Assembly (NCBI GenBank): GCA_014859205.1
Contig: JACUUR010000001.1
Span: 4,319 to 68,318 of the forward strand
Length of the DNA: 64,000 nucleotides
Source: Dehalococcoidia bacterium
GTDB lineage: Bacteria; Chloroflexota; Dehalococcoidia; GIF9; AB-539-J10
Direction: 5' to 3'
Position 1 is the stretch's first letter; each line of letters starts with the position of its first letter. The notes beneath the pieces were generated by a model. It was given only the letters and a program-made list of their open reading frames with translations. It ran no database searches and was not told the DNA's origin. Both the position numbers and the translations under genes were made by a program. Shown here piece after piece: positions 23,671 through 64,000 of the stretch.

Positions 23671-25434
23671 TCAGGAGTTGCTCGGCCACCATCGGTCTTG
23701 ACTCCAAGTCAGAACTACCACAATCGGATCAACAAAGCCCACCCTTACCAGCGTACGAAGAGGCTCGCACCTAGAGATGAAGTCGGCTATGGGAGGACTG
23801 ACGCTGTAGTAGACCGACACGAAACTCGCCCCAAGGCTATTGGGCAGCAGCACCGCGTCCCTGAAGTCCCTCAGGACGTCTATCTCATCGGCAGCATCGG
23901 TACCGTAGACCGCGGTCGAGATGAAACACCCACACCCATTCGGCACACCCGGCGAGGACCCGTAGCCGCCAAACGGTGTCCCGCCCAGGTCGGCCAGGGA
24001 CGGCGTGGTGTCGCTCGTGATCTTCGCCCAGATATACTTGTCGGAGGTATTCACCCAGGTATCCGAACACTGTTTCCACTCTGTGCCATCCCACCACAGC
24101 AGCCTGAAGAATGTCTGGTATAACTGGCTGACGTTTTCCACTTCAGCGTCCGTATAGTGAAGCCTAATCTCAACCTCGGCAACGTCCTGGGTGTCGGCAA
24201 CGCGAACATCGATATACTTGCCCAGTGTGATGAACCGCGAAGGCGCGGCATCCTCAGGATTCTCGGCGTACTTGGCGACGGTCACCGTGGCACCGATTAT
24301 GTCAACCTCAGTCTCAGCCTCCGTATTCAGGGTCCTGGCAGTCGTCGCAGCCGGCGTTCGCATCGTCACCCACACCTCGGTGTCGGCCTGGTCCAAAGCA
24401 TTGACGACACCATCAGCGGTCAACGTCGCTGTCACTACATCGGCCACCACCCAGGGCCGGAAATCCACATTATTGCTGACGGCATTACCCCTGCCGGTGA
24501 CATTCTCTGTAGGGTGAAATGGTCCGGTACCATGCCCCCACCAGTTATGGAGGGCGTCCACCCTCTGGCCTCCATCATTGAAGACGCCCAGCGCAGCGTT
24601 GCCAACGATGTTATTGAAGTGGGCCTCCACGACCGAGCTATCACAGACGTAGATGCCTATGTCATTGTTGTCAGTGATGGTGCACCCTTTCACCTTTGCG
24701 ACCGCCGGTCCCTGCCAATCATCGCCCGGTATCCCCACCACGATTCCCACACCACTGTCCATGATGCCGAAGCCGCCGTTGCCTGTCATTCTTGTGATAG
24801 TACAGCCATCAAGATCGGCCTCCGCATCCCAGATAATAATGCCCGCCATCGAGTTCCTGACCGTCACGTCTGCCAGATTCACCGAGGGCTCGCGTGCGTG
24901 TCCTATGATAGCCACTCCCACACCTAGTTCTGCCCCGAAGGTATTCTCCACCCTCACATTGGCAATTCTGCCTGTGCTGCCAACATAGGCGATGCCCACA
25001 GCCACTTCTCGGTACACGTCCAGTTCGCTGAGTGCAGCTCCGTCAAAGTCAATGCCTCGGATGATGATGTTGTGCGAGTCCTTGACAGCGGCCATGCTCC
25101 ATGCATCTCCTATCGGCCCGCGATCTATCGCGAACCAATCGCCTGCAACGACGGTTGCTCCTGCATCGCCAATTATGCTTATGTTGGTCTTGTTAACCAT
25201 CGAGAAGGCCCCGTAGTTGCCTGCTGCCACCCTGACCATATCGCCATCACGGGCAGCCTCAACAGCATCCTGGATATCGGCAAAGGCGCTGGTCCAACTA
25301 AGGCCCGTCTCATCCCCAGCGCCACCCTCGACGACATACCATGTCGTCGAGCTGGCGGCCGCCGGCAGAGCCGGGACCACTGTCAGGCTCAACACCAGTG
25401 CCAGGACAAATAGGCTAGTGAGTATCTTCTTCAC
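23671..25434 (-). CDS. secreted right-handed parallel beta-helix protein (NosD / pectate-lyase-like repeats) with a conserved C-terminal 'CFI-AAYG' domain
   Basis: GTG start behind AAGGAGAGAGA. Signal peptide MKKILTSLFVLALVLSLTVVPALPAAAS. Beta-helix repeat periodicity. The last ~85 aa are shared with 25826..28105. Confidence 0.8.
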   Translation of the reverse strand: MKKILTSLFVLALVLSLTVVPALPAAASSTTWYVVEGGAGDETGLSWTSAFADIQDAVEAARDGDMVRVAAGNYGAFSMVNKTNISIIGDAGATVVAGDWFAIDRGPIGDAWSMAAVKDSHNIIIRGIDFDGAALSELDVYREVAVGIAYVGSTGRIANVRVENTFGAELGVGVAIIGHAREPSVNLADVTVRNSMAGIIIWDAEADLDGCTITRMTGNGGFGIMDSGVGIVVGIPGDDWQGPAVAKVKGCTITDNNDIGIYVCDSSVVEAHFNNIVGNAALGVFNDGGQRVDALHNWWGHGTGPFHPTENVTGRGNAVSNNVDFRPWVVADVVTATLTADGVVNALDQADTEVWVTMRTPAATTARTLNTEAETEVDIIGATVTVAKYAENPEDAAPSRFITLGKYIDVRVADTQDVAEVEIRLHYTDAEVENVSQLYQTFFRLLWWDGTEWKQCSDTWVNTSDKYIWAKITSDTTPSLADLGGTPFGGYGSSPGVPNGCGCFISTAVYGTDAADEIDVLRDFRDAVLLPNSLGASFVSVYYSVSPPIADFISRCEPLRTLVRVGFVDPIVVVLTWSQDRWWPSNS

Positions 25435-25548
25435 GTCTCTCTCCTTTTGCTTTATCTCTATTGCCTTGTCGCCCCTTCGACCCGGGGCATGGCGGCCTCT
25501 CTATCGCAAATCTCTGACTTCCATCATAGGCATCAACCCGCTGAGAAA

Positions 25549-25575
25549 CGAAAAACCGGCCCGCTGAAGGCCGAT
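25549..25575 (-). promoter_or_regulatory. terminator-like hairpin plus U-tract inside the leader of beta-helix gene 1 (CGGCC-N7-GGCCG then GUUUUUCGUUUCUC), about 120 nt upstream of the start codon
   Basis: Read on the minus strand. An analogous element sits at the equivalent position in the gene 2 leader. Confidence 0.4.
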
Positions 25576-25754
25576 CTGGACATGGACCTCTGAACAGACA
25601 GAGTTCCGCGGAAGCGCGGCTTCCTGTAACTGCACCTTACCTCCCTTCTCCGCGATTGCCTCATTACCACTCCTGGACTGCCGCTCAACGTATGGCGTGA
25701 TCAACAGGCGGGTTTGGCCAGAATTGCGACCACTCGCCAATGAACTAAGAATAT

Positions 25755-25786
25755 GTTAACAGGTAAGTGTTAAGATATTATTAAGG
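25755..25786 (-). promoter_or_regulatory. direct repeats GTTAACA / GTTAAGA / ATTAAGG about 330 nt upstream of beta-helix gene 1
   Basis: AT-rich heptamer repeats in a roughly 60% GC background. Paralogous repeats (GTTAAGA x2) lie upstream of gene 2 at the same distance. Confidence 0.4.
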
Positions 25787-25825
25787 TCTGCGGACGACAA
25801 TGAAGCAGGCGGAGTGCGACCCCGC

Positions 25826-28105
25826 CTAATAGCCCCACTCTGACCAAGAGTGCCGGCTCCAGTTCAAGACAGAGACAATCGGCTCAACAAGACCGGCGCG
25901 CACCACTGCCCTGAGCGGCTCATTGCGGGAGATCAAAAGGGCAACGGGACGACTGACCCTATAGTAGAGGGACACAAACCCTGCACCCAGGCTGTTGGAT
26001 AGTAGAACCTGATCCCTGAACTCCCTCAGAATATCTATCTGATCGGCGGTATCCGTACCGTAGGCTGCGCTGGCGATGAAGCACATCATGCTCCTGAACC
26101 TGGCAGTTATGGAGTAGTCGCCGTCCATGGTGATGGTGGTCACAGGGGCTCTGACATTGGCAATGGTGTCCACGTCACCCGTCCACCTGTCAAACTCGTA
26201 GCCATCATCTGGAGTCGCCTCCAGGCCGACCTCAGTGCCGGGCGCATAGACGAAAGCCCTCTCGCCCGGACTAGTTACCACGCCTCGAGCGTCGCTCGAG
26301 ACCTTCAATGTGCGGAGAGGAGCACCCAGCCAGGGCTGGAAAACCACATCGTTGCTGACGCCATTACCAGTTGCCCCGGGATTGGCTGATGCATGGTACG
26401 GCCCGCTGGCATCACCCCACCAGTTGTCCGTGGCGTCACCAGTAACAGCGCTATCTCTTACTAGCAGCCCGTATTCGCCGTTCTCCACGATGTCGTTGAA
26501 GTTGATCAGCACGGCACTGCCGGCGCCAATGGCTGCCAGATGGATTCCATACTCGTTGTTCTGGCGTATTCTGTTGTACACAATGGTTACAGTGCTGTTG
26601 TCCCCAAGTCCATCGGGACAGGTATCCACGCCGGCAGTAGCACCGGCAAGGATGTTCTCCCTGACGGTGACCTGGCTGCCATCCTCAAGGCAGAGCCTCA
26701 AGGCATAATCACGACCATCGGCCTGGACGGTGAACCCGACGCCATCCCCACCAAGGAAGACTATCTCATCGGTCAAATCCACGCTTACAGAGCCGATGAT
26801 GGCCGTCGCCTCAGCCCCGTTCGCAGACCTGATGGTCAGCGACTTACCGATACCCAAGTCCTCCCTGTATTCGCCCTCCGTCACTACGATTGTATCACCG
26901 GAGGTCGCCAGATCAACGGCGTACTGAATAGAGCCGGTGGGGTCCACTCCCCAGGTCATCGGCTCAGTGCCAGTCTCAGCCCCCAGCCATGGCGAGTAGA
27001 AAACCCTTGCCGAGACGCGATCTCGATTACCGGGTCCCAATCCACCGGGGCCGTCCACATGACCCCACCAGTTACCGATGGCATCCAGATCCAAGGGGCC
27101 ATCGTTACGCACACCCCGCGAGGAATTGCCGAATATTCTATTGAAGCTGACTCTAAGGTCGATCTGCCTATCGTCGGGGTACTCCGGAAGAGGAGGAAAC
27201 ACATATATGCCGTAGAGATTCCCGGTGAAGGTGTTCCCCTCCACGGTCACATTAGTAGAAGGAAACCGGTCGAGACGATGCGCGAAGCTCAGGCCCGCGC
27301 CTTTGACATAACCACTCACTATGTTGTTCCTGACCACGGTATCCAGGAACTGCCCCCTGATGCCTTCTCCTTCGGTGATTACGCTATCCGTGGTCTGGCA
27401 CAGCACCTGGTTGCCTTCCACAAGCGAATACTGGAGATACCCGATTATGCCATACCTCACGTTTACGATCAGGTTGTTCCTGAAGAGCGCTATGGTGGGA
27501 TCAACGGGCCGTAAGGCGCCCGCGTTGATGCCGTACCTGGCGTTTTCAACATAGCAGTACTCGATGGTAGCCTCCTTCGTGAAGGTGAGGCTGAGCCCGA
27601 ACTGTTCGGAGTTCAGGGCGCGTACGTTCCTGACAACGATCTCAGCCGCCAGCGGTTTTCGATCAGGGTCAGGCGTGGACATAGCATGGAAGGTGTTCTG
27701 GATGGTCAACCCGTCGATCACCACCTCACGGTCGGTATCGTTGATTATGCTTATGCCGATCACTTCACGATAGTCTGCGTCAATGATCGTCTCGGGGCCG
27801 GTACGGTCCCGTGCGTCAACTCCGGCCTGGGCACCCTTCAAGGTCAACGATTTGTCGATGACGACATTTTCTTTGTACAGGCCCGCCGCCACCACGACTG
27901 TATCTCTTTCGCCGGCATGATCAATGGCGTACTGTATGGTAGCGAACGCGTCTCCGCCTGGCCCGGTGCCCTTGCCCTGATCATCCTCGCCCAACGAGCC
28001 ATCGACATACCACGTGGAATTGCTGGCCGCCACCGGCACCCCCGGCACCAGGATCGGGTCGCCGACCAGCACGATTAGCAACAGGATACCGAATATCTTC
28101 TTCAT
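25826..28105 (-). CDS. secreted parallel beta-helix protein (two beta-helix regions) with an InlB-B-repeat-like module and the conserved C-terminal 'CFI-AAYG' domain; start taken at ATG 28105 (MKKIFGILLL...) rather than the track start 28180
   Basis: AAGGAGAGAG SD is 3 nt before ATG 28105, followed by a signal peptide. C-terminal 85 aa are about 65% identical to 23671..23925. Confidence 0.8.
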   Translation of the reverse strand: MKKIFGILLLIVLVGDPILVPGVPVAASNSTWYVDGSLGEDDQGKGTGPGGDAFATIQYAIDHAGERDTVVVAAGLYKENVVIDKSLTLKGAQAGVDARDRTGPETIIDADYREVIGISIINDTDREVVIDGLTIQNTFHAMSTPDPDRKPLAAEIVVRNVRALNSEQFGLSLTFTKEATIEYCYVENARYGINAGALRPVDPTIALFRNNLIVNVRYGIIGYLQYSLVEGNQVLCQTTDSVITEGEGIRGQFLDTVVRNNIVSGYVKGAGLSFAHRLDRFPSTNVTVEGNTFTGNLYGIYVFPPLPEYPDDRQIDLRVSFNRIFGNSSRGVRNDGPLDLDAIGNWWGHVDGPGGLGPGNRDRVSARVFYSPWLGAETGTEPMTWGVDPTGSIQYAVDLATSGDTIVVTEGEYREDLGIGKSLTIRSANGAEATAIIGSVSVDLTDEIVFLGGDGVGFTVQADGRDYALRLCLEDGSQVTVRENILAGATAGVDTCPDGLGDNSTVTIVYNRIRQNNEYGIHLAAIGAGSAVLINFNDIVENGEYGLLVRDSAVTGDATDNWWGDASGPYHASANPGATGNGVSNDVVFQPWLGAPLRTLKVSSDARGVVTSPGERAFVYAPGTEVGLEATPDDGYEFDRWTGDVDTIANVRAPVTTITMDGDYSITARFRSMMCFIASAAYGTDTADQIDILREFRDQVLLSNSLGAGFVSLYYRVSRPVALLISRNEPLRAVVRAGLVEPIVSVLNWSRHSWSEWGY

Positions 28106-28210
28106 CTCTCTCCTTATAGACGCTCCTTCTAATCGCTCTTCGTCACTAGGCCGGAGACATGGTGACCTTTCCTCACACAACCCGCACTCTCTCAGACATC
28201 AAGCCGCCGA

Positions 28211-38520: not shown

Positions 38521-40578
38521 CTACTTCTTCTGCTCACTGCCGGCCAGTACCGCCGAAGCTGCCCTGGCCCACCCCTCCGGGCCGATGCCGGTGACACGTT
38601 TCAGGTTCTTGACGTTGACCTTGTTCCAGTTCTTGTTCACCGTCTGCACGATAATCGGTAAATCCACGGCGTTAAGCATCTCAACGTCGTTCAAGCTGTC
38701 GCCGATCCCGATCGTGTATACATCGCCGGAGTTGAGCTTGAAAAGCTCCATCAGGATCTTGACCGCCTTCCCTTTGTCGGCCCCCAGGCACACCTCGTAG
38801 AACTTGCCGCCGAAGGTGTAACCCAGCCCCACCTCCTTGATGGCTGCCAGAGTTGCCTGCACTCGTTTCTTGTCGCCCTCTATTGTCACGGTCTCGGTGT
38901 ACTCCCGTTGCTTGGCCAGCGCCGCCATGACCAGGTTGAGGCCGGTCACCTTGGATACTTCCTCGGTAGTAAGGTCACCGAAGCATGTGATCTGCAGCTC
39001 TGGCCTGGCGCATAATTCCTTCAGCTTGCTCTTCACCTCCGCGTACGGGCTCCCGATTTCAATGACAAAGCAATCATCAGCCGTCCTGCTATAGGAGAAA
39101 GAGAACCTGAAGTAGTCTTTGGGCACTACGACCGCCGCTCCGTTCTCGATGACAAATGGGTCCGCAATGCCCAGTTCCTGACGGTAGACCTGCTGTTCAG
39201 CCCGGGTCTTAGCCGAGCAGAACACTATGGGTATATTCGCTTCCTGTAATGCCCGTACCGAATCAAGTGCTGCTGCATAGGAGTAGCTGACAGGATGGAG
39301 CAGGGTACCGTCAAGGTCGGTGAAGACCAGCCTGGCAGCCTCCTGCGCTCTGCGGACGGCGGCCGGCAAGCTGGCCCGTACCGCCGCACCCTTCGGCACA
39401 GCATACTCGCTAAGCTGTCTGTCCACGAGGCCGGCGAAGCGCCCGGCATCCACAGTCTCCGGGGGCGGCAGAATCAGCAGTTCGGGCACTTCACCATCCC
39501 GTGGAATGCACTCCAGGTCTACGAGCTGCCTGGTTATCAACTCTCTGGTTGCCTGCTCACACAGCGGGTTGTGGTAGATCACCGAGAGACTGGGCACAAG
39601 CATATCCTGGAGCAGGTGCTCTTCACCTTTTTCCTCGTGGACATGAGGGTTTATCGTCTCGGTCTGGATTATGTCCACACCCTTCTCCATGATCGTCCGG
39701 TCGGCCACGGGGCCCAGGCCTGAGAACTGCTCGAAGATGGACATGAGTTCCTGGGTCTCGACGCCATAGCCGGTGGCATAGGTCAGCTTCTTGGCCAGCT
39801 GGAGACTCATGGCATGCTCGCCCGCATTGGCCGTCCTGATGATGTCGGTCTCGAAGTTGCCCTTGGTGGAGATGAAATGGTTTACGTACTTGTTGGTAAT
39901 TTCCGAGACCCGTCCCCACTTCTTGAAGTAGAGCTTGCCGGAAATCTTAGGCTTGTACCTCCACAACAGCCTGGCCATCACATAGGGCGACTGCGATAGG
40001 CTGAATCCGACCGCATAGTGCTGGGCATATTCCCAGACCGCGCCGGGAATGTAGTTATCGGTGTCGATGAACCCCACATAATCCTTACCCAGTACTTCAG
40101 CCAGCAGGATACCGATGATCATCCCTTCCGCCTTGCCGCTTCTCACGAGGCTAGTCTCATCGAGAATCCGGCCGTATCCGCAGTCGGCCAGCGCCTCCGC
40201 CAGCCGGGGATCCTTTTGATGAACGATGATGGCATCCCTCTTCGTGGCAACGCAGAATCTTTCCAGCGTTTCCTGTTCTCTTTTCAGGTTGTCGACCTCG
40301 CCCCGCCGGCTATTGGACATCACAATCATCAGGCAGTCATGAGGGATGCCGCTCAGTACCCCTTCGAATACCTTCACATCCTCATCCTTTATGGGTAGCA
40401 CAATAGCCATCTTCTGGTGAATGCCGGCGATAACGTCACGTTCAATTCTCTGGGGCTCAACGCTTTCCTTGACCCGAGAGGGAACCCGGGCGCCGGAGTC
40501 AAGCTCCAGCATGCGGCGTACAGGATGGACCCTGACCGCTCCGACGTGTTCAACTTGCCCGCTACTTTCGATACGCAT
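38521..40578 (-). CDS. mgsD: bifunctional mannosyl-3-phosphoglycerate synthase / mannosyl-3-phosphoglycerate phosphatase (MgsD-type; GT55 + HAD-IIB)
   Basis: N-terminal GT55 MPGS domain, C-terminal HAD phosphatase (VFTDLDGTLL motif I, GDSLNDVEML motif IV). 685 aa fusion, as described for Dehalococcoides. Confidence 0.85.
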   Translation of the reverse strand: MRIESSGQVEHVGAVRVHPVRRMLELDSGARVPSRVKESVEPQRIERDVIAGIHQKMAIVLPIKDEDVKVFEGVLSGIPHDCLMIVMSNSRRGEVDNLKREQETLERFCVATKRDAIIVHQKDPRLAEALADCGYGRILDETSLVRSGKAEGMIIGILLAEVLGKDYVGFIDTDNYIPGAVWEYAQHYAVGFSLSQSPYVMARLLWRYKPKISGKLYFKKWGRVSEITNKYVNHFISTKGNFETDIIRTANAGEHAMSLQLAKKLTYATGYGVETQELMSIFEQFSGLGPVADRTIMEKGVDIIQTETINPHVHEEKGEEHLLQDMLVPSLSVIYHNPLCEQATRELITRQLVDLECIPRDGEVPELLILPPPETVDAGRFAGLVDRQLSEYAVPKGAAVRASLPAAVRRAQEAARLVFTDLDGTLLHPVSYSYAAALDSVRALQEANIPIVFCSAKTRAEQQVYRQELGIADPFVIENGAAVVVPKDYFRFSFSYSRTADDCFVIEIGSPYAEVKSKLKELCARPELQITCFGDLTTEEVSKVTGLNLVMAALAKQREYTETVTIEGDKKRVQATLAAIKEVGLGYTFGGKFYEVCLGADKGKAVKILMELFKLNSGDVYTIGIGDSLNDVEMLNAVDLPIIVQTVNKNWNKVNVKNLKRVTGIGPEGWARAASAVLAGSEQKK

Positions 40579-50727: not shown

Positions 50728-50801
50728 GCCCCCATCGTCTAGAGGCCTAGGACATCAGCCTTTCAAGCTGAAGATCAGGGGTTCGAATCCCCTTGGGGGC
50801 A
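50728..50801 (+). tRNA. tRNA-Glu (anticodon UUC); no encoded CCA
   Basis: Cloverleaf folded by hand: acceptor GCCCCCA/UGGGGGC, anticodon stem UCAGC/GCUGA, loop CUUUCAA, T-loop GGTTCGAATCC. Confidence 0.85.
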
Positions 50802-50943
50802 CTTCTTATTAGTGCACACGGTGCCTCACTACCCTCTGTCTCACAGTATCACAGATCATCAAGAGACAGGATTACGGGCCGGCCGCGCAGGCTGTCATCG
50901 GCCCATTTAACCGTGCCTCTGAAGGCGCGGCAGCCGCGAGCAG

Positions 50944-52789: not shown

Positions 52790-54982
52790 TCAACGTTTCT
52801 TCCTTGGTGTAACCCTCCCGGCGCTCTTCCTCTTCGCCGAACGCGCTTTCTTCGCACCGGGCCCTGTCATCCGGCTGGTTCTACGTCTGCGCAACAGAAA
52901 GACGACCAGCCCGGCTACCACCGCTCCCATTATCGCGCCCACCAACGGCCACTTAACTGCCGCGGCCTCAGCAAAATTGGCCATGACCTCGTAATCGCCT
53001 TGCATCGTGATGGTGGTTGCAGCGGCCCCAACACTGGCGACCGTGGCCACATCGCCGCTCCAGTTGACAAAGCGAAAACCCCGGTCAGGCTCGGCAAGCA
53101 ACTGAACCGTCAGCCCGGCAGTGTAGGTGAAGGTGCCCTCACCATGAGTGATCACCGAACCGCCACCGCTGCTGGAGACGGTAAGGGAATACTCTACAAC
53201 ACCGAGGTCCCAGTCGGTAAGCTCCATCTCAACACCCGCAGAAACCAGCGAGCCGTCGGATCTGATCCCCACCGTTTGATATCCGCCCGCCGCTACCCCG
53301 ACGATGTCCGTCCAGGCATCGACATTGCACTGCCCCCAGTCGTTGTCTCCCACTGCGACCACAGTGCCGTCGGGCCTCAGGCCCACAGTGTGATAGCCAC
53401 CGCTCGCCACCCCCACGATGTCCATCCAGTCACCGACATCACACTGCCCGTAGGAATTGTATCCCGTCGCAACCACGCTGCCGTCGGACCTGAGCCCCAC
53501 TGTATGTGCGGCGCCTGCCGCCACCCCCACTACATCCGCCCAGTCATGCACGTCACGCTGCCCATGATAATTGTCTCCCACAGCAACCACGGTGCCGTCG
53601 CTCTTAACTCCAACCGTGTGATAGCCACCGGCCACCACCCGGACTATGTCCATCCAGTCCCCGACATCGCACTGCCCGTAGAAGTCATGTCCTCTCGCAA
53701 CCACGGTGCCGTCAGACCGCAGGCCCACAGTGTGTGCAGCGCCTGCCGCTATCATCTCGATCTCCCTCCAGTCCGCCACATCAGATTGTCCTGCCACATC
53801 ATCTCCAACGGCCACTGCAGTGCCGTCGGTCTTGAACCCCACCGTGTGATAACCACCGGCCGCAATTCCTTTAATGCCCGCCCAATCGGCAACATCGCAC
53901 TGCCCGTGGTAGTTATATCCCGTTGCGACCACGGTGCCGTCGGACCTGAGCCCCACGGTGTGCGAGAACACTGTGGCGACCTCCACCATATCCATCCAGT
54001 CGCCTACATCACCCTGCCCATGGTACCTCTCTCCCGCAGCGACGACTGTCCCATCAGATTTCAGCCCCACTGTATGACGCTCACCTGCCGCTATCGAGAT
54101 CATCCCACTCCACTCCTCTACATCACCTTGCCCTACTACGTTATCACCCACCGCCACCGCCCCACCGTCAATCTTGAGCCCCACAGTGTGATAACCACCC
54201 GCCACAACCTGCATGATGTTCGTCCAGTCCGCCACGTCGCTCTGTCTCCAGGCGTTATCTCCGACCGCGACTACTCCGCCGTCGATATTAAGCCCCACCG
54301 TGTGATAACCACCTGCGGCAATCCCAACGATGTCGGTCCAGTCGTCCACATCACACTGCCTCCAGTCGTTGTCTCCCACCGCAACCACTTTGCCGTCGGC
54401 ATCAAGCCCCACAGTATGCGCCCCGCCTGCCGCAACCTCCACGATGCCCGCCCAATCGGCAACATCGCACTGTCCGTAGTAGTTGTGTCCCACTGCGACG
54501 ACAGTTCCGTCAGATTTCAGGCCCACAGTGTGACGCTCGCCTGCAGCGACCCGGACAATGTCCGTCCAGTCGCCCACATCGCACTGCCCGGCCAGATTCT
54601 CTCCCGCTGCCACCACGGTACCGTCGGCCTTAACACCAACCGTATGATAGCTACCGGCGGCGACATGGGTTATGTCCGTCCAGTCCCCCACATCGCACTG
54701 CCCGTGCTGATTATGTCCCACTGCGACCACCGTGCCGTCGGACCTGAGCCCCACCGTGTGGCCCTCGCCTGCGGCCACCATAGGCGTTACCTGCCCCTCA
54801 GCCACAGCCAGTACCACTGTAGGCGCGGTGCCAGCGGCGTCCACACGCTCAGCAACTATCACCCTGCTATCCACCAGGAACGCGGTCCCTGATGAAGCTC
54901 CTGCTGCCGAAGCAGGAAGAACTGCGCTGAACATGAGCACCACCGAGATCACGAATAATAGGAGCATCGTTCTACTTCTCAT
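52790..54982 (-). CDS. secreted RCC1-repeat (beta-propeller) protein with an InlB-B-repeat-like module, C-terminal TM anchor and polybasic tail
   Basis: Signal peptide. About 14 tandem repeats of the ~38-aa unit GxxHTVGLxxDGTVVAxGxNxxGQCDVxDWxDIV. C-terminal hydrophobic helix then RRRRTSRM...RKKR. Confidence 0.8.
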   Translation of the reverse strand: MRSRTMLLLFVISVVLMFSAVLPASAAGASSGTAFLVDSRVIVAERVDAAGTAPTVVLAVAEGQVTPMVAAGEGHTVGLRSDGTVVAVGHNQHGQCDVGDWTDITHVAAGSYHTVGVKADGTVVAAGENLAGQCDVGDWTDIVRVAAGERHTVGLKSDGTVVAVGHNYYGQCDVADWAGIVEVAAGGAHTVGLDADGKVVAVGDNDWRQCDVDDWTDIVGIAAGGYHTVGLNIDGGVVAVGDNAWRQSDVADWTNIMQVVAGGYHTVGLKIDGGAVAVGDNVVGQGDVEEWSGMISIAAGERHTVGLKSDGTVVAAGERYHGQGDVGDWMDMVEVATVFSHTVGLRSDGTVVATGYNYHGQCDVADWAGIKGIAAGGYHTVGFKTDGTAVAVGDDVAGQSDVADWREIEMIAAGAAHTVGLRSDGTVVARGHDFYGQCDVGDWMDIVRVVAGGYHTVGVKSDGTVVAVGDNYHGQRDVHDWADVVGVAAGAAHTVGLRSDGSVVATGYNSYGQCDVGDWMDIVGVASGGYHTVGLRPDGTVVAVGDNDWGQCNVDAWTDIVGVAAGGYQTVGIRSDGSLVSAGVEMELTDWDLGVVEYSLTVSSSGGGSVITHGEGTFTYTAGLTVQLLAEPDRGFRFVNWSGDVATVASVGAAATTITMQGDYEVMANFAEAAAVKWPLVGAIMGAVVAGLVVFLLRRRRTSRMTGPGAKKARSAKRKSAGRVTPRKKR
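52960..54800 (-). repeat. tandem ~114-bp coding repeats (RCC1-like blades) inside 52790..54982
   Basis: Recurrent DNA strings such as ccgtcggacctgagccccac(c/t)gtgtg every ~114 bp. Confidence 0.7.
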
Positions 54983-55715: not shown

Positions 55716-55961
55716 TTAGCCAATGACGAAAGACAGGACTATGAGGACCAGAATCATGACTCCAGCAATGATGCCGATGCGCCTGACCTCGGGCATCACA
55801 TGCCGGTAGCGAATGGCAGGATCCTGGGCTCTGGTCAACACCCGAGCCGGCGATGCTGGCTCAGACGGCATTGCTCTTGGCTGCTGCACAGGCCTTGACC
55901 CTTCCGGCCTGGCCGGTCTGCTCTGGTACTTTGCTTTACTGCGCCGTGATCTCTTTGTCAT
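55716..55961 (-). CDS. small basic tail-anchored membrane protein (hypothetical)
   Basis: 81 aa, Arg/Pro-rich N-terminus and a single C-terminal TM helix. Overlaps the xerC/D stop by 4 nt. Confidence 0.4.
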   Translation of the reverse strand: MTKRSRRSKAKYQSRPARPEGSRPVQQPRAMPSEPASPARVLTRAQDPAIRYRHVMPEVRRIGIIAGVMILVLIVLSFVIG

Positions 55962-56806
55962 TGTCCCTTCCTTGCCGCGGATTGCTCGTAAACTCTTGTG
56001 CTGGACACGTACGCGTGACCCAACAACTGCTGAACCTGGCGGAGATCAGCACCGCTTTGCAGCCTGTGTCTGGCGAAGCTATGACGCAAGGTCTGAGGCG
56101 TCACCTTACCGCTCAGGCCGGCTTTGCCGGCATAGCCCTTGACGATCTGCCAGAATCCCTGCCGGGTCAATCTCTTGCCGCGCCGGTTCAGAAACAGAGC
56201 TTCCTCGCTCTCGTCATAGAGTAAGTCCAGTCTATCGTTCCTGAGGAAATTCCCCAGAATCAGATTCAACCTGTCATCAAAGGGCACCTGTCTTCCGGAA
56301 CCAACGCGCACCAGGCTCCTACCCAGATCAATGTCTCCCGTATTCAACGATACGAGTTCGCTTATGCGCAGGCCGGTGGCATAGAGGAACTCCAGCATCA
56401 CCACATCTCTTCTCGCCTCGGGAGTGGGCAGCTTTGTTGCCTCGGCCAACAACCCCTCAAACTCCGCAGAAGACAGGAAGCTGAGCGAGCGTCTGCTAAC
56501 TTGAGGAGAGGGCAGGTTCTGGGTGGGATTCCCGTTGATCCGGCCCGAAGCAACCATGAACTTGAAGAAGGACTTGGCGGACGCCACCTTGCGGGCCATG
56601 GTGGCCACCGAGTATCTCTTCTCCCGGAGCTTGAGCAGATAGCCTTTCAGAAGATCGTCATAGGACTCGATGATGCCCTTTGCCTTCTCTGCTGAGATGA
56701 AGCTTGCCATCTGGGTCAGATCGTTGCGGTAAGCGGCCACAGTGTTCTGAGAACAACCCTTCGCCCGGGCCAAATGCTGCAGAAAGGCATCGATATCCGG
56801 CTTCAT
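55958..56806 (-). CDS. tyrosine recombinase XerC/XerD family; start taken at internal ATG 56806 (MKPDIDAFLQHL...)
   Basis: N-terminal SAM-like core-binding domain and C-terminal catalytic R..HxxR..Y (LRHSFARH, Y in STRVY). The 137-aa upstream extension of the track ORF overlaps uvrC on the opposite strand and has no homology. Confidence 0.8.
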   Translation of the reverse strand: MKPDIDAFLQHLARAKGCSQNTVAAYRNDLTQMASFISAEKAKGIIESYDDLLKGYLLKLREKRYSVATMARKVASAKSFFKFMVASGRINGNPTQNLPSPQVSRRSLSFLSSAEFEGLLAEATKLPTPEARRDVVMLEFLYATGLRISELVSLNTGDIDLGRSLVRVGSGRQVPFDDRLNLILGNFLRNDRLDLLYDESEEALFLNRRGKRLTRQGFWQIVKGYAGKAGLSGKVTPQTLRHSFARHRLQSGADLRQVQQLLGHAYVSSTRVYEQSAARKGQ

Positions 56807-56875
56807 CACCACAATTGTAACATAATCCAGACGGTTTTTGCCTCTGTGTAGATCGCTTGCTACAATGCAACCATC

Positions 56876-58705
56876 GTGGAGGCAGAGCAACTGAGAGCCT
56901 TGCCTGCAAAGCCCGGAGTATACCTGCTCAGGGACAGAGATGGCAAGGTCATCTACGTGGGCAAGGCTGCCAGCTTGAGCAGCCGGGTAAGGAGTTACTT
57001 CGGCTCTCCCTCTGGCCTGTCTGCGAAGACCCGACGATTGGCGGCAAGGATACGGGATTTCGAGTTTGTGGTGACCGATTCCGAGCAAGAGGCGCTCATT
57101 CTCGAGTGCGATCTCATAAAGAAGTATGTGCCCGAGTTCAACGCCCGTCTCAAGGATAGCAAGAGTTTCCCTTATCTGAAGATAGACGTCAACGGTGATT
57201 GGCCTGGCGTTCATATCACCCGCCGGGTACAGAGAGACGGAGCCAGGTACTTCGGGCCCTTTGCCAGCGCCGGATCGGTGCGAAAAACCCTGCGGCTAAT
57301 AGAGAGGATCTTCCCGATTCGCACCTGCAACAAGCCCCTAGACGGCAAAGACCGGCGGCCCTGCCTGGATTATCATATCCACCGCTGTCTGGGACCGTGC
57401 ATAGGGGCAGTGGAAAGAGAAGAATACAGAGAGATGATAGACAGGGTCATCCTGTTCTTGCAGGGCAAGCAGGAATTGGTCCTCCGCGAGCTGAACGACA
57501 GGATGCAGACCGCAGCACAGCAGCTTCAGTTCGAGAGGGCAGCCCTGCTGCGGGACCAGATCGAGGCCATAACAGGAGTCATAGAGGGGCAGAGGATCGC
57601 AGTGAAACTGCAGGGAGAAAAGGATGTCATTGGCCTGGCACAGAACGAACGACAGGCCTATGTCGAGCTGTTCTCTATCCGCAACAGCAGACTTATCGGC
57701 CGGGAGCACTTTGCCATGGAAGGCCTTCAGGGCGATCCTCCCGGGCAGGTGATGACCGATTTCGTCAAACAATACTACGCCTCAGCTTCCTACATACCGC
57801 CGCTGATCCTGATCCAGCATCCTGTCGATGAGCCGGTCGTGCTCTCCGAATGGCTCAAGCAGCAGAGAGGGAGCAGAGTGGCGCTCGAGGTGCCGCAGCG
57901 AGGAGCTAAGAAGAAGCTGATCGATATGGTGGCCGACAATGCCGTTCGGGGCCTGGAGTTGGCCCGGGCCAGGGAGTTGACGCTAGGGGCCTTGACCTCG
58001 GGACTACGAGAACTGAGGGACAAGCTCGGCCTGGACCGAATGCCGCGGAGAATAGAGTGTTACGACGTCTCCAACATCCAGGGCACTTCGGCTGTGGGCA
58101 GCATGGTCGTTCTGGAGCAGGGCCTGCCCAAACCGGCGCACTATCGTCGCTTCCGGATCAGGACAGTGGCAGGGGCGGACGACTATGCCATGATCCGGGA
58201 GACTTTGAGGCGCAGGTTCAAGCAGGGCGCGGCAGGCGCAGGCACCTGGGCGATCATCCCCGACCTGGTCCTGATTGACGGCGGCAAGGGACAGCTCAAC
58301 GCCGCCCTAAGTCTGAGCCGGGAACTGGGTCTGGAATCGGTCCCCATGGTCAGCCTGGCCAAAGGACAGGAGGAGGTATTCATACCCGGTCGGGCCTCGC
58401 CGGTCGCCATAGCCGCCGATTCTCCTGCTTTGCACATACTGCAAAGGGCCAGAGATGAGGCCCATCGCTTCGCCGTAAGCTATCACCGGAAGCTGCGTGA
58501 CAGGAGAGTCGTTGCCTCTGCCCTGGACGAAATTCCCGGCATCGGACCGAGACGAAAGAGGGCGCTGCTCAAGGAGTTCGGCTCGATCAAAGGCATCAGG
58601 GAGGCTTCGCCGCAGGAGCTCAGCAGGGCAGAAGGCATCAACCCGGCCCTGGCCCAGAGAATCAAACAACATCTGGGAGACTCGTCGGTGTCGGGGCATT
58701 CCTGA
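56876..58705 (+). CDS. uvrC: excinuclease ABC subunit C
   Basis: GIY-YIG domain (GVYLLRDRDGKVIYVGKA), UvrBC-interaction region, RNase H-like endonuclease domain and C-terminal (HhH)2. Confidence 0.92.
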   Translation: MEAEQLRALPAKPGVYLLRDRDGKVIYVGKAASLSSRVRSYFGSPSGLSAKTRRLAARIRDFEFVVTDSEQEALILECDLIKKYVPEFNARLKDSKSFPYLKIDVNGDWPGVHITRRVQRDGARYFGPFASAGSVRKTLRLIERIFPIRTCNKPLDGKDRRPCLDYHIHRCLGPCIGAVEREEYREMIDRVILFLQGKQELVLRELNDRMQTAAQQLQFERAALLRDQIEAITGVIEGQRIAVKLQGEKDVIGLAQNERQAYVELFSIRNSRLIGREHFAMEGLQGDPPGQVMTDFVKQYYASASYIPPLILIQHPVDEPVVLSEWLKQQRGSRVALEVPQRGAKKKLIDMVADNAVRGLELARARELTLGALTSGLRELRDKLGLDRMPRRIECYDVSNIQGTSAVGSMVVLEQGLPKPAHYRRFRIRTVAGADDYAMIRETLRRRFKQGAAGAGTWAIIPDLVLIDGGKGQLNAALSLSRELGLESVPMVSLAKGQEEVFIPGRASPVAIAADSPALHILQRARDEAHRFAVSYHRKLRDRRVVASALDEIPGIGPRRKRALLKEFGSIKGIREASPQELSRAEGINPALAQRIKQHLGDSSVSGHS

Positions 58706-58872: not shown

Positions 58873-59646
58873 GTGGAGATCTTCTTAACACTCCTGTTTG
58901 CCCTTGTGGGCCTGACCGTAGGCAGCTTCCTCAATGTATGTATCGACCGCCTGCCCCAGAACAAGTCGATTGTACGTCCGCCCTCCCACTGTGACGCCTG
59001 CCAGCGCAGGCTGGTGATCAAGGACCTCATCCCTGTATTCAGCTATCTGCGCCTCCGGGGCCGTTGCCGCTACTGTCAGGCTGCGGTGCCCCGGAAGCTG
59101 ATGTGGGTGGAACTCGTCACCGGGCTGATATTCGCCTTCCTCTACCGGCACTACGGCCTTAGTCCAGAACTGGCGGTCATGATCTTCTACAGTTGCCTGT
59201 TCATTGTGGTCTTCGTCATCGACCTGGAGCACGGTCTGATCCTGAACAAGGTGATCTACCCGGCCCTGGTTGTGGCTCTGCTATTGTCTCTGTATCCCTG
59301 GCCCTGGCTCACTCAGATCATCACGCCCGGGATCGCCAGTGCGGCGCTGGGCGGAGGCGTCGGCTTCGCCGTGTTCCTGCTGATCGCAATAATCTCGCGC
59401 GGCGGCATGGGGTGGGGAGATGTCAAGCTGGTCGGCCTGATCGGACTGGCTACCGGCTTTCCTCTGGTCTTCTTCTCCGTAGTGCTCGGGGCCGTGCTGG
59501 GCGGCATCGTAGCCGTGGCTCTGGTCATAGCCAGAAAGAGGACCTTCAAGGAGACGCTCCCCTTCGGCCCGTTTCTGGCCCTGGGCGCCATGATAACGCT
59601 GATCTGGGGCAACAACGTCCTGAACTGGTACCTGGGACTGATCTAG
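58873..59646 (+). CDS. prepilin peptidase (A24 family, PilD-like)
   Basis: N-terminal CxxC...CxxC zinc motif, polytopic membrane domain with catalytic Asp pattern. No pilin genes in the window. Confidence 0.85.
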   Translation: MEIFLTLLFALVGLTVGSFLNVCIDRLPQNKSIVRPPSHCDACQRRLVIKDLIPVFSYLRLRGRCRYCQAAVPRKLMWVELVTGLIFAFLYRHYGLSPELAVMIFYSCLFIVVFVIDLEHGLILNKVIYPALVVALLLSLYPWPWLTQIITPGIASAALGGGVGFAVFLLIAIISRGGMGWGDVKLVGLIGLATGFPLVFFSVVLGAVLGGIVAVALVIARKRTFKETLPFGPFLALGAMITLIWGNNVLNWYLGLI

Positions 59647-61436: not shown

Positions 61437-61991
61437 ATGACCGAGATGAAGAGCGCCTGGGAGATCGCTCAGGAGAGGGCAGACAGACTGGGGCAGCTCT
61501 CCAGCGACGAGAAAGCAGAGCAGGAGCAGCAGAGGTACCGCCAGATCGGCCGGGCGCTGGCGCAGAAATGGCTGGATGGTGCCCCACGGCTGGATCTCCC
61601 TGCCGAGCTGAACAAGCAGGACCAGAAGGGCAGGACGATAGTGAAGCAGGCCGTGATCGGCCGCCTGGCCGAGGACATCGACTTCGCGAACGCCCGCCCC
61701 GTGGACAGCACGCAAGGGATAATCGAGGCCATAATCGGAGTGGAGCCCGCACTGCGGCCGCAGGCCGAGGAAATGGCCGGGCTTCTCCGGAAATACCAAC
61801 AGGCGGAACAGAAGAAAAGGCAGGAACTCGAAGCGGGCTACCGGGAGACCCTGCACCGGCTGAGGATCTCAGGAACGGCGGTGGGTGCCATCAACCTTGA
61901 GTCCGACCGGGCATGGCAAAAGGCCAGAGACGAACTGATTGCAGCCTTCGCCCCCAGGCTCAATGCTCTGAAGCAGGCGCTGGTCGGCTAG
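61437..61991 (+). CDS. hypothetical Gln/Arg-rich helical protein (184 aa)
   Basis: Long ORF. No family recognised. Lies at the boundary of the GC-rich terminal segment. Confidence 0.35.
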   Translation: MTEMKSAWEIAQERADRLGQLSSDEKAEQEQQRYRQIGRALAQKWLDGAPRLDLPAELNKQDQKGRTIVKQAVIGRLAEDIDFANARPVDSTQGIIEAIIGVEPALRPQAEEMAGLLRKYQQAEQKKRQELEAGYRETLHRLRISGTAVGAINLESDRAWQKARDELIAAFAPRLNALKQALVG

Positions 61992-61999
61992 ACGAGAGG

Positions 62000-64000
62000 T
62001 CATGGCGCCCCCAGGGTGAGGGTGTGGTCATACTGGGGGTGGCGGTCGAACAGCCGGACCCGGGTAAGGCCGGCGTAATCGATGCGGTCGGACAGGACCC
62101 GGTAGGCGCGGTCGACGCTGCAGACGGGATCGATGACGGTGACCACGTCGTACAGCTCCTGGCCGACGTTGGGCGGGACGGTGATGAGGGCCGGGTCGGC
62201 CCGCAGCTCCGCCAGCCGGGCCATGGCCAGGGCGCGGTCCTCCGCCTGCAGGGCGGTGGTGAGGTTGGGGTCGTAGACCTGGGCCAGGTCGTCGACGCCG
62301 TCGGCCAGGGCGTCCCAGTCCGCCTCATCCCAGAGGATGCGGGTGTCGGTGGCGGGATCGCGGCCCAGCGCACGCACCCTGGTGGTGATCGACTGGTGGC
62401 CGTAGCGGCCGGACAGGACGGGATGGGCCCAGCGGCTGAACTCGTAGGCCGGGGCCTCGGCGGGGCGGGGGTCCTTGGTCTGGGCCCGGCCGGCGTCGGT
62501 AAAGAAGAGTCGGTCCGGGACGGTGGCCAACAGCCGGCGGACGGCCGTGTCGCCCTTCTGCCCGGGCAGCACGGTGAAGTCGGGATAGAAGTTGTCGATG
62601 GCCGAGCTGCGGGGCTGGGGTGGGGCGGGGTCCAGGTGCACTCCCACCCGCGCCAGGATCCGCGCCAGGATATGAGCGACGGTGTACGGGGCCCCGGGGA
62701 CATCGTTCCAGCGGAGCTGGTAGCGGGGCGTCCAGGCCTGCAACAGGCCCCAGCCGTCGGTACAGGTGAGCGTGAAGCGGGTGATGTTGGGGGCGTGGTG
62801 GTAGTGCCAGGAGTCGATCCACCAGGTGCCGACGGCGATCTCCTCATGCTGGACGCCGGGGACTCCTCGGACCCGGTACCCGAGGTACAGCTCCACCTCG
62901 GAGCGGAGGCGGAGGGCGGCCAGGCCGGCGGTCCCTGGATTTTCATACTGGCCTTTCGAGTTGTCAAGCTCGATAATGAGGCTTCCGGGGCGGTTTACTG
63001 CGATTGAGGCGATATCCCCTGCCAGGACCAGGGCCGCCGGCATTACTCTGGGCGCTCGGTAAACGAGCGACGGGGTGGTGATCCACCAGTAATCGGCCGT
63101 GGTCTGCATGCGCAGACCGTAGGGCGTGGTAATGTCAAGAAAAGGCGCCGACTCTGTGACGGTGCTGTCGGACCAGGCGGTCCCCGGCACCAGGTGACAG
63201 GCCAGGGGGCGCGAAAAGGGGGCCACGCCGGCGAAGTCCTCGACGAACAGGGCCCGGGTGGGCTCGTAGGCCGCCGGGCTGGAGGGAAGGTGTACTTCGG
63301 GATAGGAGAACAGAACGTCCTCTCCCTCGGGGGTGCGGGCCAGGCTGTCCAGGGGGCCGAAGATCCAGGCGCCCGAGAACCAGGTCCGGTAGACGTTCAG
63401 GTGGTGATACGGGGTGTCGACCTGCCGGCCGGCCAGCAGGAGCTGGCAGCTCGGCCCGTCGTCCTCGTAGGTGGCCCCGATGCCGAATGTTTGGGCCAGG
63501 ACCGTGGGGCTGGGGGGCGTGAAAGAGTGCGTGTGCTCGTTGGTGCCCTGGGTGTCGGTGTCCAGGCGGATGGCATTTATGGCGTTATCACGAAGGGCAA
63601 AACAGATAACCGTGGACGTGGACCCCCACCAACAGGCGGCCAGGTGGCGCACGTCGGTGTAGGTCGACAGGACGCCGGCGGTCCAGCTGGTACCGTTGTT
63701 ATGGCTGTAGTATTTGACGATCTCGTTGTCGTCGGTGACCCAGAAAATGTAAATGCGGGGACCATAGGCGGCGATGGCACAGGGACCGTCAAGGTTGGTG
63801 GCCACCAGGGTCCACGAGCTGAAGGGCGATCCGGGACCCGGGCCTACCACACGCTGCCGGTACAGGTAATTGCCCTGGCCCCGGACCCGGTGCATGTAGC
63901 CCAGGTTGTCAAAAGCGAGGCCATGATAGCCGGCGACCTCGGCGCCGGTATAGAGGTTCTGCCAGACAAGACGCCTGGCGCCCTGGTAGCGGTCCGTAAC
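62000..64000 (-). CDS. large GC-rich (about 68% GC) protein, partial; its N-terminus lies beyond the window. Contains a BNR/Asp-box-like motif; possible phage tail/host-specificity or glycosidase-like protein
   Basis: No stop in frame between the track start (63895) and the window end. Motif SHNNGTSWT matches SxDxGxTW. Composition differs sharply from the rest of the window. Confidence 0.5.
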   Translation of the reverse strand, partial: VTDRYQGARRLVWQNLYTGAEVAGYHGLAFDNLGYMHRVRGQGNYLYRQRVVGPGPGSPFSSWTLVATNLDGPCAIAAYGPRIYIFWVTDDNEIVKYYSHNNGTSWTAGVLSTYTDVRHLAACWWGSTSTVICFALRDNAINAIRLDTDTQGTNEHTHSFTPPSPTVLAQTFGIGATYEDDGPSCQLLLAGRQVDTPYHHLNVYRTWFSGAWIFGPLDSLARTPEGEDVLFSYPEVHLPSSPAAYEPTRALFVEDFAGVAPFSRPLACHLVPGTAWSDSTVTESAPFLDITTPYGLRMQTTADYWWITTPSLVYRAPRVMPAALVLAGDIASIAVNRPGSLIIELDNSKGQYENPGTAGLAALRLRSEVELYLGYRVRGVPGVQHEEIAVGTWWIDSWHYHHAPNITRFTLTCTDGWGLLQAWTPRYQLRWNDVPGAPYTVAHILARILARVGVHLDPAPPQPRSSAIDNFYPDFTVLPGQKGDTAVRRLLATVPDRLFFTDAGRAQTKDPRPAEAPAYEFSRWAHPVLSGRYGHQSITTRVRALGRDPATDTRILWDEADWDALADGVDDLAQVYDPNLTTALQAEDRALAMARLAELRADPALITVPPNVGQELYDVVTVIDPVCSVDRAYRVLSDRIDYAGLTRVRLFDRHPQYDHTLTLGAP

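Follow-up and report, generated by a model that had tools for sequence, protein, structure and literature searches.

The DNA analyzed here, a stretch of 64,000 nucleotides from a Dehalococcoidia bacterium (contig JACUUR010000001.1, positions 4,319 to 68,318; hereafter the window), contains two neighboring genes for secreted beta-helix proteins that end in a common C-terminal module, the CFI box, which is the subject of this work. The genes, both on the minus strand, are arranged head to tail and were delimited from their open reading frames (ORFs) and from Pfam and NCBIfam matches. Gene 1 (23671–25434) encodes a secreted right-handed beta-helix protein of 587 amino acids (aa) from a GTG start, and gene 2 (25826–28105) encodes a secreted beta-helix protein with an InlB B-repeat, of 759 aa when counted from its ATG; the ORF of gene 2 as mechanically called extends upstream to a TTG at 28180, and the ATG, which has an AGGAG Shine–Dalgarno sequence, is preferred. 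Both products begin with a signal peptide of 27 residues, read from the sequence and its hydropathy: in gene 1 (25354–25434) MKKILTSLFVLALVLSLTVVPALPAAA is followed by SS, with cleavage predicted between AAA and SS from the AXA rule, and in gene 2 (28025–28105) MKKIFGILLLIVLVGDPILVPGVPVAA is followed by SN, with cleavage likewise predicted between VAA and SN. The Kyte–Doolittle mean over 19 residues (KD19) reaches 1.6 or more only in these signal peptides. Within the C-terminal 95 aa it peaks at 1.43 (gene 1) and 1.09 (gene 2), so neither tail contains a transmembrane (TM) helix or is an anchor of LPXTG type. This bears out an earlier reading of the same DNA from its letters alone (the sequence-only reading), in which the tail had been described as non-hydrophobic and distinct from a sortase-type or TM anchor.

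The passenger regions of the two proteins are related but considerably more diverged than their tails. In gene 1 a parallel beta-helix region spans aa 92–293 (24556–25161, minus strand; PF13229, E = 1e-6, and PF05048), and in gene 2 two NosD/Beta_helix blocks occupy aa 57–552 (26450–27937, minus strand; TIGR04247 over aa 57–232, TIGR03805, PF13229 in three stretches and PF05048). Against a cut-off of 25.9 bits PF13229 scores 28.9 bits in gene 1 and 58.9 bits in gene 2, where PF05048 scores 36.4 bits; aa ~340–500 of gene 1 have no Pfam match. Directly before its CFI box, gene 2 carries a divergent InlB B-repeat (Flg_new_2, PF18998, E = 5.2e-15; aa 599–671, 26093–26311, minus strand). When the two products are compared by BLASTP, the last 80 aa are 66% identical without gaps (E = 4e-31), as against 28% for the N-terminal beta-helix parts (E = 5e-16). 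Together with the ORFs, signal peptides and Pfam matches, these values confirm what had been proposed from the letters alone, that genes 1 and 2 are tandem paralogues with a common tail that encode Sec-exported right-handed beta-helix proteins. Shine–Dalgarno sequences are present at both starts (25420–25480 and 28090–28150, minus strand) in a nearly identical context that includes the first codons, AAGGAGAGAGA(C)[A/G]TGAAGAAGATA, which fits a duplication; ribosome-binding site and first codons are thus almost the same although the passengers have diverged so far. A second conserved element, IWAKI(T/R)xDTTPSLADLxGTxFGGYG(H)PS, stands directly before the CFI box of gene 1 (24016–24087, aa ~450–473) and of many homologues from Dehalococcoidia; it was seen upstream of the CFI box in P0001, P0002, P0003, P0008, P0015 and P0034.

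The common tail belongs to a family that has already been catalogued. It spans aa 503–587 of gene 1 (23674–23928, minus strand), where it opens with the peptide CFISTAVYG (23902–23928) and continues with three predicted helices and a Trp-rich end, and aa 675–759 of gene 2 (25829–26083, minus strand), where the peptide reads CFIASAAYG (26057–26083); in both genes the Cys of the motif lies 85 residues before the stop codon. The NCBIfam model NF041770 (CFI_box_CTERM; 69 positions, curated cut-off 40 bits) matches aa 503–568 of gene 1 with 85.3 bits (E = 1.8e-24) and aa 675–741 of gene 2 with 79.7 bits (E = 1e-22), so that both C-terminal tails cover model positions 1 to 66 or 67 from the initial Cys-Phe-Ile onward at twice the cut-off. 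The sequence-only reading had held the tail to be unassignable and perhaps undescribed; these matches overturn that view, and NCBI already names homologues from Dehalococcoidia, Chloroflexota, Nitrospirota, Thermodesulfobacteriota and other metagenome-assembled genomes (MAGs) "CFI-box-CTERM domain-containing protein". Apart from motifs that deviate slightly from the consensus CFIATAAYG, the two tails show no essential difference from the family, and the products of genes 1 and 2 are ordinary further members of it. They represent the TM-less, Trp-tailed subtype common in Dehalococcoidia, for which scores of 80–85 bits compare with 104–110 bits for TM-tailed forms. A regular-expression scan of all six frames of the window found the motif in these two genes only.

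What the NCBIfam entry supplies is a name and not a function. No Pfam family covered the tail when the whole proteins and 26 diverse tails were searched at E up to 10, a profile search of PDB sequences gave no match at E up to 1, Foldseek against the PDB returned nothing under E = 8, and full-text literature searches for the family name or the motif found no papers. A confident match to a characterized family would have spoken against the novelty originally claimed for the tail; the match obtained is confident and leads to a named family, but one of no known function, since the searches turned up neither a publication nor a Pfam model nor an experimental structure. We conclude that the tail belongs to a catalogued, experimentally uncharacterized family.

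Conservation within the module was computed over 346 non-redundant sequences and is concentrated at its start, where each of the nine positions of the motif C-F-I-A-T-A-A-Y-G is 96–100% conserved and the Cys is present in 343 sequences. Further near-invariant positions are Leu19-Arg20, Phe22-Arg23-Asp24, Gly33, Tyr40-Tyr41, Ser44-Pro45-Pro46 and Ala48. The residue before the Cys is variable (Gly in 46%) and usually falls within a Gly/Pro/Ser linker. AlphaFold2 modeling of a 95-aa query with a 123-sequence alignment (mean pLDDT, the predicted local distance difference test score, 77.5) places helices at query residues 21–37, 41–63 and 65–85 with pLDDT values of 82–94, and a shallower alignment gave the same three helices. 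For the residues through most of the CFI peptide the model gives pLDDT values under 50 and shows no packing onto the helices, a disposition that fits an intermolecular role; on this model, the most conserved element of the module would act like an exposed linear peptide on a small folded bundle. The Cys was also considered as a lipoprotein lipobox residue, and this was rejected because it is internal, ~500–675 aa from the N-terminus, with variable residues at −1 to −3 and no hydrophobic stretch upstream.

Outside the window the module is widespread. A profile search of 1.84 billion cluster representatives (50%-identity clusters) was exhaustive and recovered 27,452 CFI-box matches with an E-value limit of 1e-3, of which 16,023 stayed within 1e-10, and a scan of one genome per species yielded at least 581 confirmed copies, from which 80 loci were kept for study. 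These loci come mostly from Dehalococcoidia and other Chloroflexota, with the remainder from Nitrospirota, Desulfobacterota, several gammaproteobacterial lineages, ANME-1/Methanophagales, Ca. Ethanoperedens, Thermoplasmata and one Halobacteriota MAG; all of the carrier genomes among them are MAGs or single-cell genomes, and no isolate was seen. Nearly all of the best 150 representatives end with the CFI box, as do the carriers of the 80 loci. It follows unrelated extracellular modules (beta-helix, RCC1, papain C1, subtilase S8, LRR, PKD and He_PIG), and an N-terminal signal-like segment was found in at least 54 of 79 carriers. The suggestion that a conserved C-terminal module is shared by divergent secreted proteins, also beyond this locus, is therefore upheld on a large scale. 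Twelve of the 80 loci contain two or three carriers, as the window does. Apparently internal or double CFI boxes (P0026, P0027, P0078 and P0107) were rejected as true architectures; they are fused calls of tandem genes, in which a CFI box with a TM helix is followed by a new signal peptide, and they show that tandem arrays of carriers are common.

Five architectures were distinguished among CFI-box proteins, all of them scoring above the NF041770 cut-off. TM-less forms, including genes 1 and 2, span 74–95 aa between Cys and stop codon, and those from Dehalococcoidia often end in W-S-x-x-L-W. Long forms extend over ~98–121 aa: behind the core come a short linker, an evident TM helix and a cluster of Arg/Lys residues, and where the protein also has a signal peptide, the core thereby comes to lie at the outer surface of the membrane. 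Both forms can occur within one MAG (L015 with L032/L058/L073, L013 with L055, and L027 with L077). The third class is minimal, comprising lipoproteins that consist of a signal peptide, a lipobox Cys, a linker of ~10 aa and the CFI box only (P0133, P0250 and P0317), and a protein in which the CFI core is joined to a TM helix and nothing else (P0229); these minimal proteins, above all the three lipoproteins, are candidate anchored docking partners for TM-less cargo. A conserved leaderless, stand-alone family of ~103–107 aa from Dehalococcoidia, with neither signal peptide nor TM helix, makes up the fourth class (for example L082:6001-6312, L083, L084, L085 and L011:7911-8246). Its members start with a basic/aromatic peptide of 22 aa (MPDRRERDKGWWKGLDAYPPKA- or MPKRKDWAVFDLWRQKESGWRA-) that leads into the CFI box. 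On four contigs of Dehalococcoidia type that are close relatives of one another, the gene is flanked by guaA and purD; it was looked for at the equivalent position in the window and is absent there. Finally, rare archaeal carriers of cytoplasmic type, again with neither signal peptide nor TM helix, make up the fifth class. In one of them, from Thermoplasmata (L066:6573-8249), a zinc ribbon is combined with an Mrr_cat restriction-endonuclease-like domain; the other, from Methanophagales (L046:2420-2923), is a small Cys-rich zinc-ribbon protein.

A comparison within the window bears directly on what the tail might do. An RCC1-repeat secreted protein (52790–54982, minus strand; RCC1_2 and Flg_new_2 by Pfam, otherwise from its translation and hydropathy) has no CFI box and carries an InlB B-repeat at aa 598–672 (52967–53191) that is 51% identical over 71 aa to that of gene 2. 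Both repeats fall into the same Pfam family, as had been recognized from the letters alone. Exactly where gene 2 has its CFI box, after the homologous repeat, the RCC1 protein has a TM helix (52892–52951; PLVGAIMGAVVAGLVVFLL, KD19 = 2.53) and then an RRRR tail. The two endings thus agree in position and in being attached to a secreted repeat protein, and presumably in outcome, retention at the membrane surface, but the CFI-box tails are too weakly hydrophobic to span a membrane (1.43 and 1.09 versus 2.53), and they are strongly conserved in sequence whereas generic anchors are not.

To search for a partner enzyme, ORFs of at least 90 aa from the 80 loci and from 26 kb of the window were compared all against all by BLASTP and clustered after removal of the carriers. 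No conserved non-carrier neighbor emerged from this set: the one large cluster was made up of ORFs that run antisense to the CFI box, after which came other InlB-B/RCC1 surface proteins and then generic ABC ATPases, and the small clusters held housekeeping enzymes. The annotation of the whole window contains no sortase, rhomboid, CPBP or exosortase-like gene. A prepilin peptidase is encoded at 58873–59646 and cleaves after a Gly before a hydrophobic stretch; it was rejected as a processor because it acts on class III signal peptides, which are N-terminal. The dedicated processing enzyme that the sequence-only reading had envisaged thus adjoins the CFI-box genes in none of the 80 related loci, and of the two roles proposed there for the tail, envelope attachment or processing, attachment stays the more plausible one.

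Our preferred interpretation, held tentatively at a probability of about 0.4, is that the CFI box is an autonomous module for envelope retention or docking that stands in for a TM anchor; we infer retention, docking and the role of the Cys alike. After Sec export, the module would hold its passenger on the outside of the cytoplasmic membrane, where the bundle with its exposed CFI peptide might associate with membrane-anchored CFI-box members (TM-tailed forms or minimal lipoproteins) or with the lipid bilayer itself. On this view the invariant Cys would belong to an interaction surface or reactive surface and not to the fold. In genes 1 and 2 the module is not a classical tripartite sorting signal composed of motif, TM segment and Arg cluster. 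This interpretation is favored because in gene 2 the CFI box and in the RCC1 protein the TM anchor occupy equivalent positions behind homologous repeats, because no conserved enzyme gene adjoins the carriers in the 80 loci, and because an exposed and invariant CFI peptide resembles an intermolecular contact. The continuum from core plus TM helix through core alone to anchored core only is what would be expected if anchored members or the membrane surface hold TM-less cargo, and module-only and cytoplasmic members are hard to square with a tag destined for removal. Cultured Dehalococcoides have no cell wall, and retention at the membrane would matter if the source organism is likewise wall-less.

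Several points weigh against retention by docking. Simple docking needs no obvious invariant Cys and no invariant peptide of nine residues. The archaeal carriers L066 and L046 and the leaderless stand-alone family need no envelope retention, so the core function may be broader. The 64-kb window encodes no anchored CFI-box protein, and the sequence sample is skewed toward close relatives of the query. The lack of an adjacent enzyme would, moreover, be compatible with an unlinked housekeeping enzyme as for MYXO-CTERM, whose cognate enzyme is unlinked; such proteases are often not beside their substrates (Haft, bioRxiv 10.1101/2023.06.07.544157).

This last point leads to the chief rival explanation, in which the CFI box serves as a sorting signal that depends on its Cys and is processed: the exported protein would be lipidated at the Cys, and an unlinked housekeeping endopeptidase, for example a CPBP/Rce1-type "myxosortase" or an exosortase/archaeosortase-like enzyme, would then remove the three-helix part and leave the mature protein lipid-anchored at a new C-terminus. 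The position of the invariant Cys, exactly at the boundary of passenger and module and usually after a Gly/Pro/Ser-rich linker with the noted preference for Gly at −1, is in keeping with this, as is the suffix "-CTERM" chosen by the NCBIfam curators, and four known Cys-containing C-terminal signals pair with CPBP proteases that are often unlinked (Haft, bioRxiv 10.1101/2023.06.07.544157). Like those signals, of the MYXO-CTERM kind, the CFI box is C-terminal on many unrelated secreted proteins per genome and has an invariant Cys in its motif, and its long-form homologues match their terminal TM helix and basic cluster and so end as tripartite signals do. The known signals, however, measure ~30–40 aa with the motif directly before the TM segment, whereas the CFI box inserts a conserved three-helix bundle of ~55 aa, so that in the long forms ~70 residues and a folded bundle separate the Cys from the TM helix. 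Measured against tripartite signals of the LPXTG, PEP-CTERM, PGF-CTERM and MYXO-CTERM type, the tails of genes 1 and 2 have a short signature motif of the CFIATAAYG type, but a helical bundle follows it instead of a TM segment (in the homologues with a TM helix, that helix comes after the bundle), the ends ...TWSQDRWWPSNS and ...NWSRHSWSEWGY have no Arg/Lys cluster, and the neighborhood comparison revealed no cognate enzyme; most close relatives similarly lack both TM helix and Arg cluster. Conservation of ~65 residues over bacteria and archaea is far above that of known discarded signals, and module-only, leaderless stand-alone and cytoplasmic-type carriers, which those signals do not have, make little sense for a throwaway tag; the leaderless and cytoplasmic-type members argue in particular against a strictly Sec-coupled cleavage signal. 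With no candidate enzyme in the 80 neighborhoods either, we consider processing of this kind rather unlikely, while regarding it as the main contender.

The same leaderless and cytoplasmic-type proteins could instead indicate that the CFI box is a general association or ligand-binding domain, for small helical oligomerization or for cofactor or metal binding through the Cys, and is simply commonest on secreted proteins. The domain would then occur on both sides of the membrane, as exemplified by the guaA–purD family, the Thermoplasmata Mrr-like protein and the Methanophagales zinc-ribbon protein, all above the cut-off, and its many invariant polar residues (Arg20, Arg23, Asp24, Tyr40, Tyr41 and Ser44) point to a specific binding site. 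Yet the carriers are overwhelmingly surface proteins or exo-proteins that are secreted, consist of several domains and have the domain strictly C-terminal, the TM-tailed and lipoprotein forms tie it to the membrane surface, and searches of Pfam and the PDB and with Foldseek found no match to a cofactor-binding family or fold; a general binding role is therefore judged unlikely. Far less credible is an autocatalytic mechanism, in which an N-to-S acyl shift at X-Cys (compare Hedgehog/intein Hint domains) would produce a thioester that an envelope nucleophile resolves, attaching the passenger covalently and releasing the tail. An invariant Cys as the first residue of the module, often after Gly, and the failure to find an external enzyme would both suit it, but a Hint/intein-like domain requires a beta-rich fold of ~130–150 aa with Cys, His and Thr blocks, whereas the module is modeled as an all-helical bundle of ~70 aa, and the tails match no Hint or intein family of Pfam (searched at E up to 10) or NCBIfam. 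There is no conserved set of His, Thr and Asn (a semi-conserved His is replaced by Cys in gene 1 and by Asn in gene 2), and AlphaFold does not confidently place the Cys near the conserved polar residues.

Retention by docking, to return to the interpretation preferred above, can be compared with known folded tags. The C-terminal domain of type IX secretion (Por_Secre_tail) and the SLH domain are, like the CFI box, folded address or attachment tags of ~70–90 aa on diverse secreted cargo. The former is a beta-sandwich restricted to diderms of the Bacteroidota type, and the latter is a helical wall-binding module usually present in triplicate. The CFI box differs from both in being a single helical bundle that occurs in monoderm Chloroflexota, diderm bacteria and archaea, and it matches neither in Pfam or NCBIfam. 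In its most far-reaching form, the docking hypothesis would describe an unrecognized attachment system of bacteria and archaea, in which TM-less cargo docks on anchored minimal CFI-box proteins via the CFIATAAYG peptide, possibly with thiol chemistry, so that many cargo proteins would be served by few anchors and no sortase-like enzyme; in this extended form the idea is doubtful.

For genes 1 and 2 themselves the outcome is mostly a clarification, as their tail had already been named; the remaining interest lies in a very large, cross-domain orphan with an invariant Cys peptide and a range of architectures. With more than 27,000 clusters at 50% identity and no published function, structure or partner, CFI-box-CTERM is among the largest orphan C-terminal modules, and its carriers include uncultured Dehalococcoidia, ANME-1 and related anaerobes that display many exo-enzymes and adhesin-like proteins on cells that are possibly wall-less. 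Once its mechanism is worked out, it would become possible to predict surface proteomes from metagenomic data, and a display tag for these lineages could follow.

A terminator-like hairpin found by consensus scan at the stop codon of gene 2 (25806–25828, minus strand) suggests that genes 1 and 2 are transcribed separately, as a weak indication since hairpin-type sites in the region are not above the shuffled expectation. A protein identical to the gene 1 product is encoded on a Logan contig from SRR11917416. The gene pair is flanked by housekeeping genes, a korABG-like 2-oxoacid:ferredoxin oxidoreductase on one side and nrdR with a class II ribonucleotide reductase on the other, and the rest of the window is also of housekeeping character, with guaA, purD, hypDEF, ilvD and a bifunctional mannosylglycerate synthase gene. 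This gene content and the closest relatives of the window suggest an organism of Dehalococcoidia type, with which the mannosylglycerate fusion described below agrees. Toward the end of the window (61500–64000) the GC content rises from ~0.57–0.60 to 0.63–0.73, which could reflect foreign DNA or an assembly join; an ORF of 631 aa in this part (62000–63895, minus strand) has no Pfam or PHROG match. A tyrosine recombinase ORF (55958–57214, minus strand; Phage_integrase and SAM-like domains) overlaps the start of uvrC (56876–58705, plus strand) by ~340 bp as mechanically called, and its true start is probably later, which would give a protein of XerC/D size. A tRNA-Glu gene lies at 50728–50802. 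The mannosylglycerate gene (38521–40578, minus strand) encodes a bifunctional mannosyl-3-phosphoglycerate synthase/phosphatase fusion (Osmo_MPGsynth with a HAD domain), an architecture known from Dehalococcoides.

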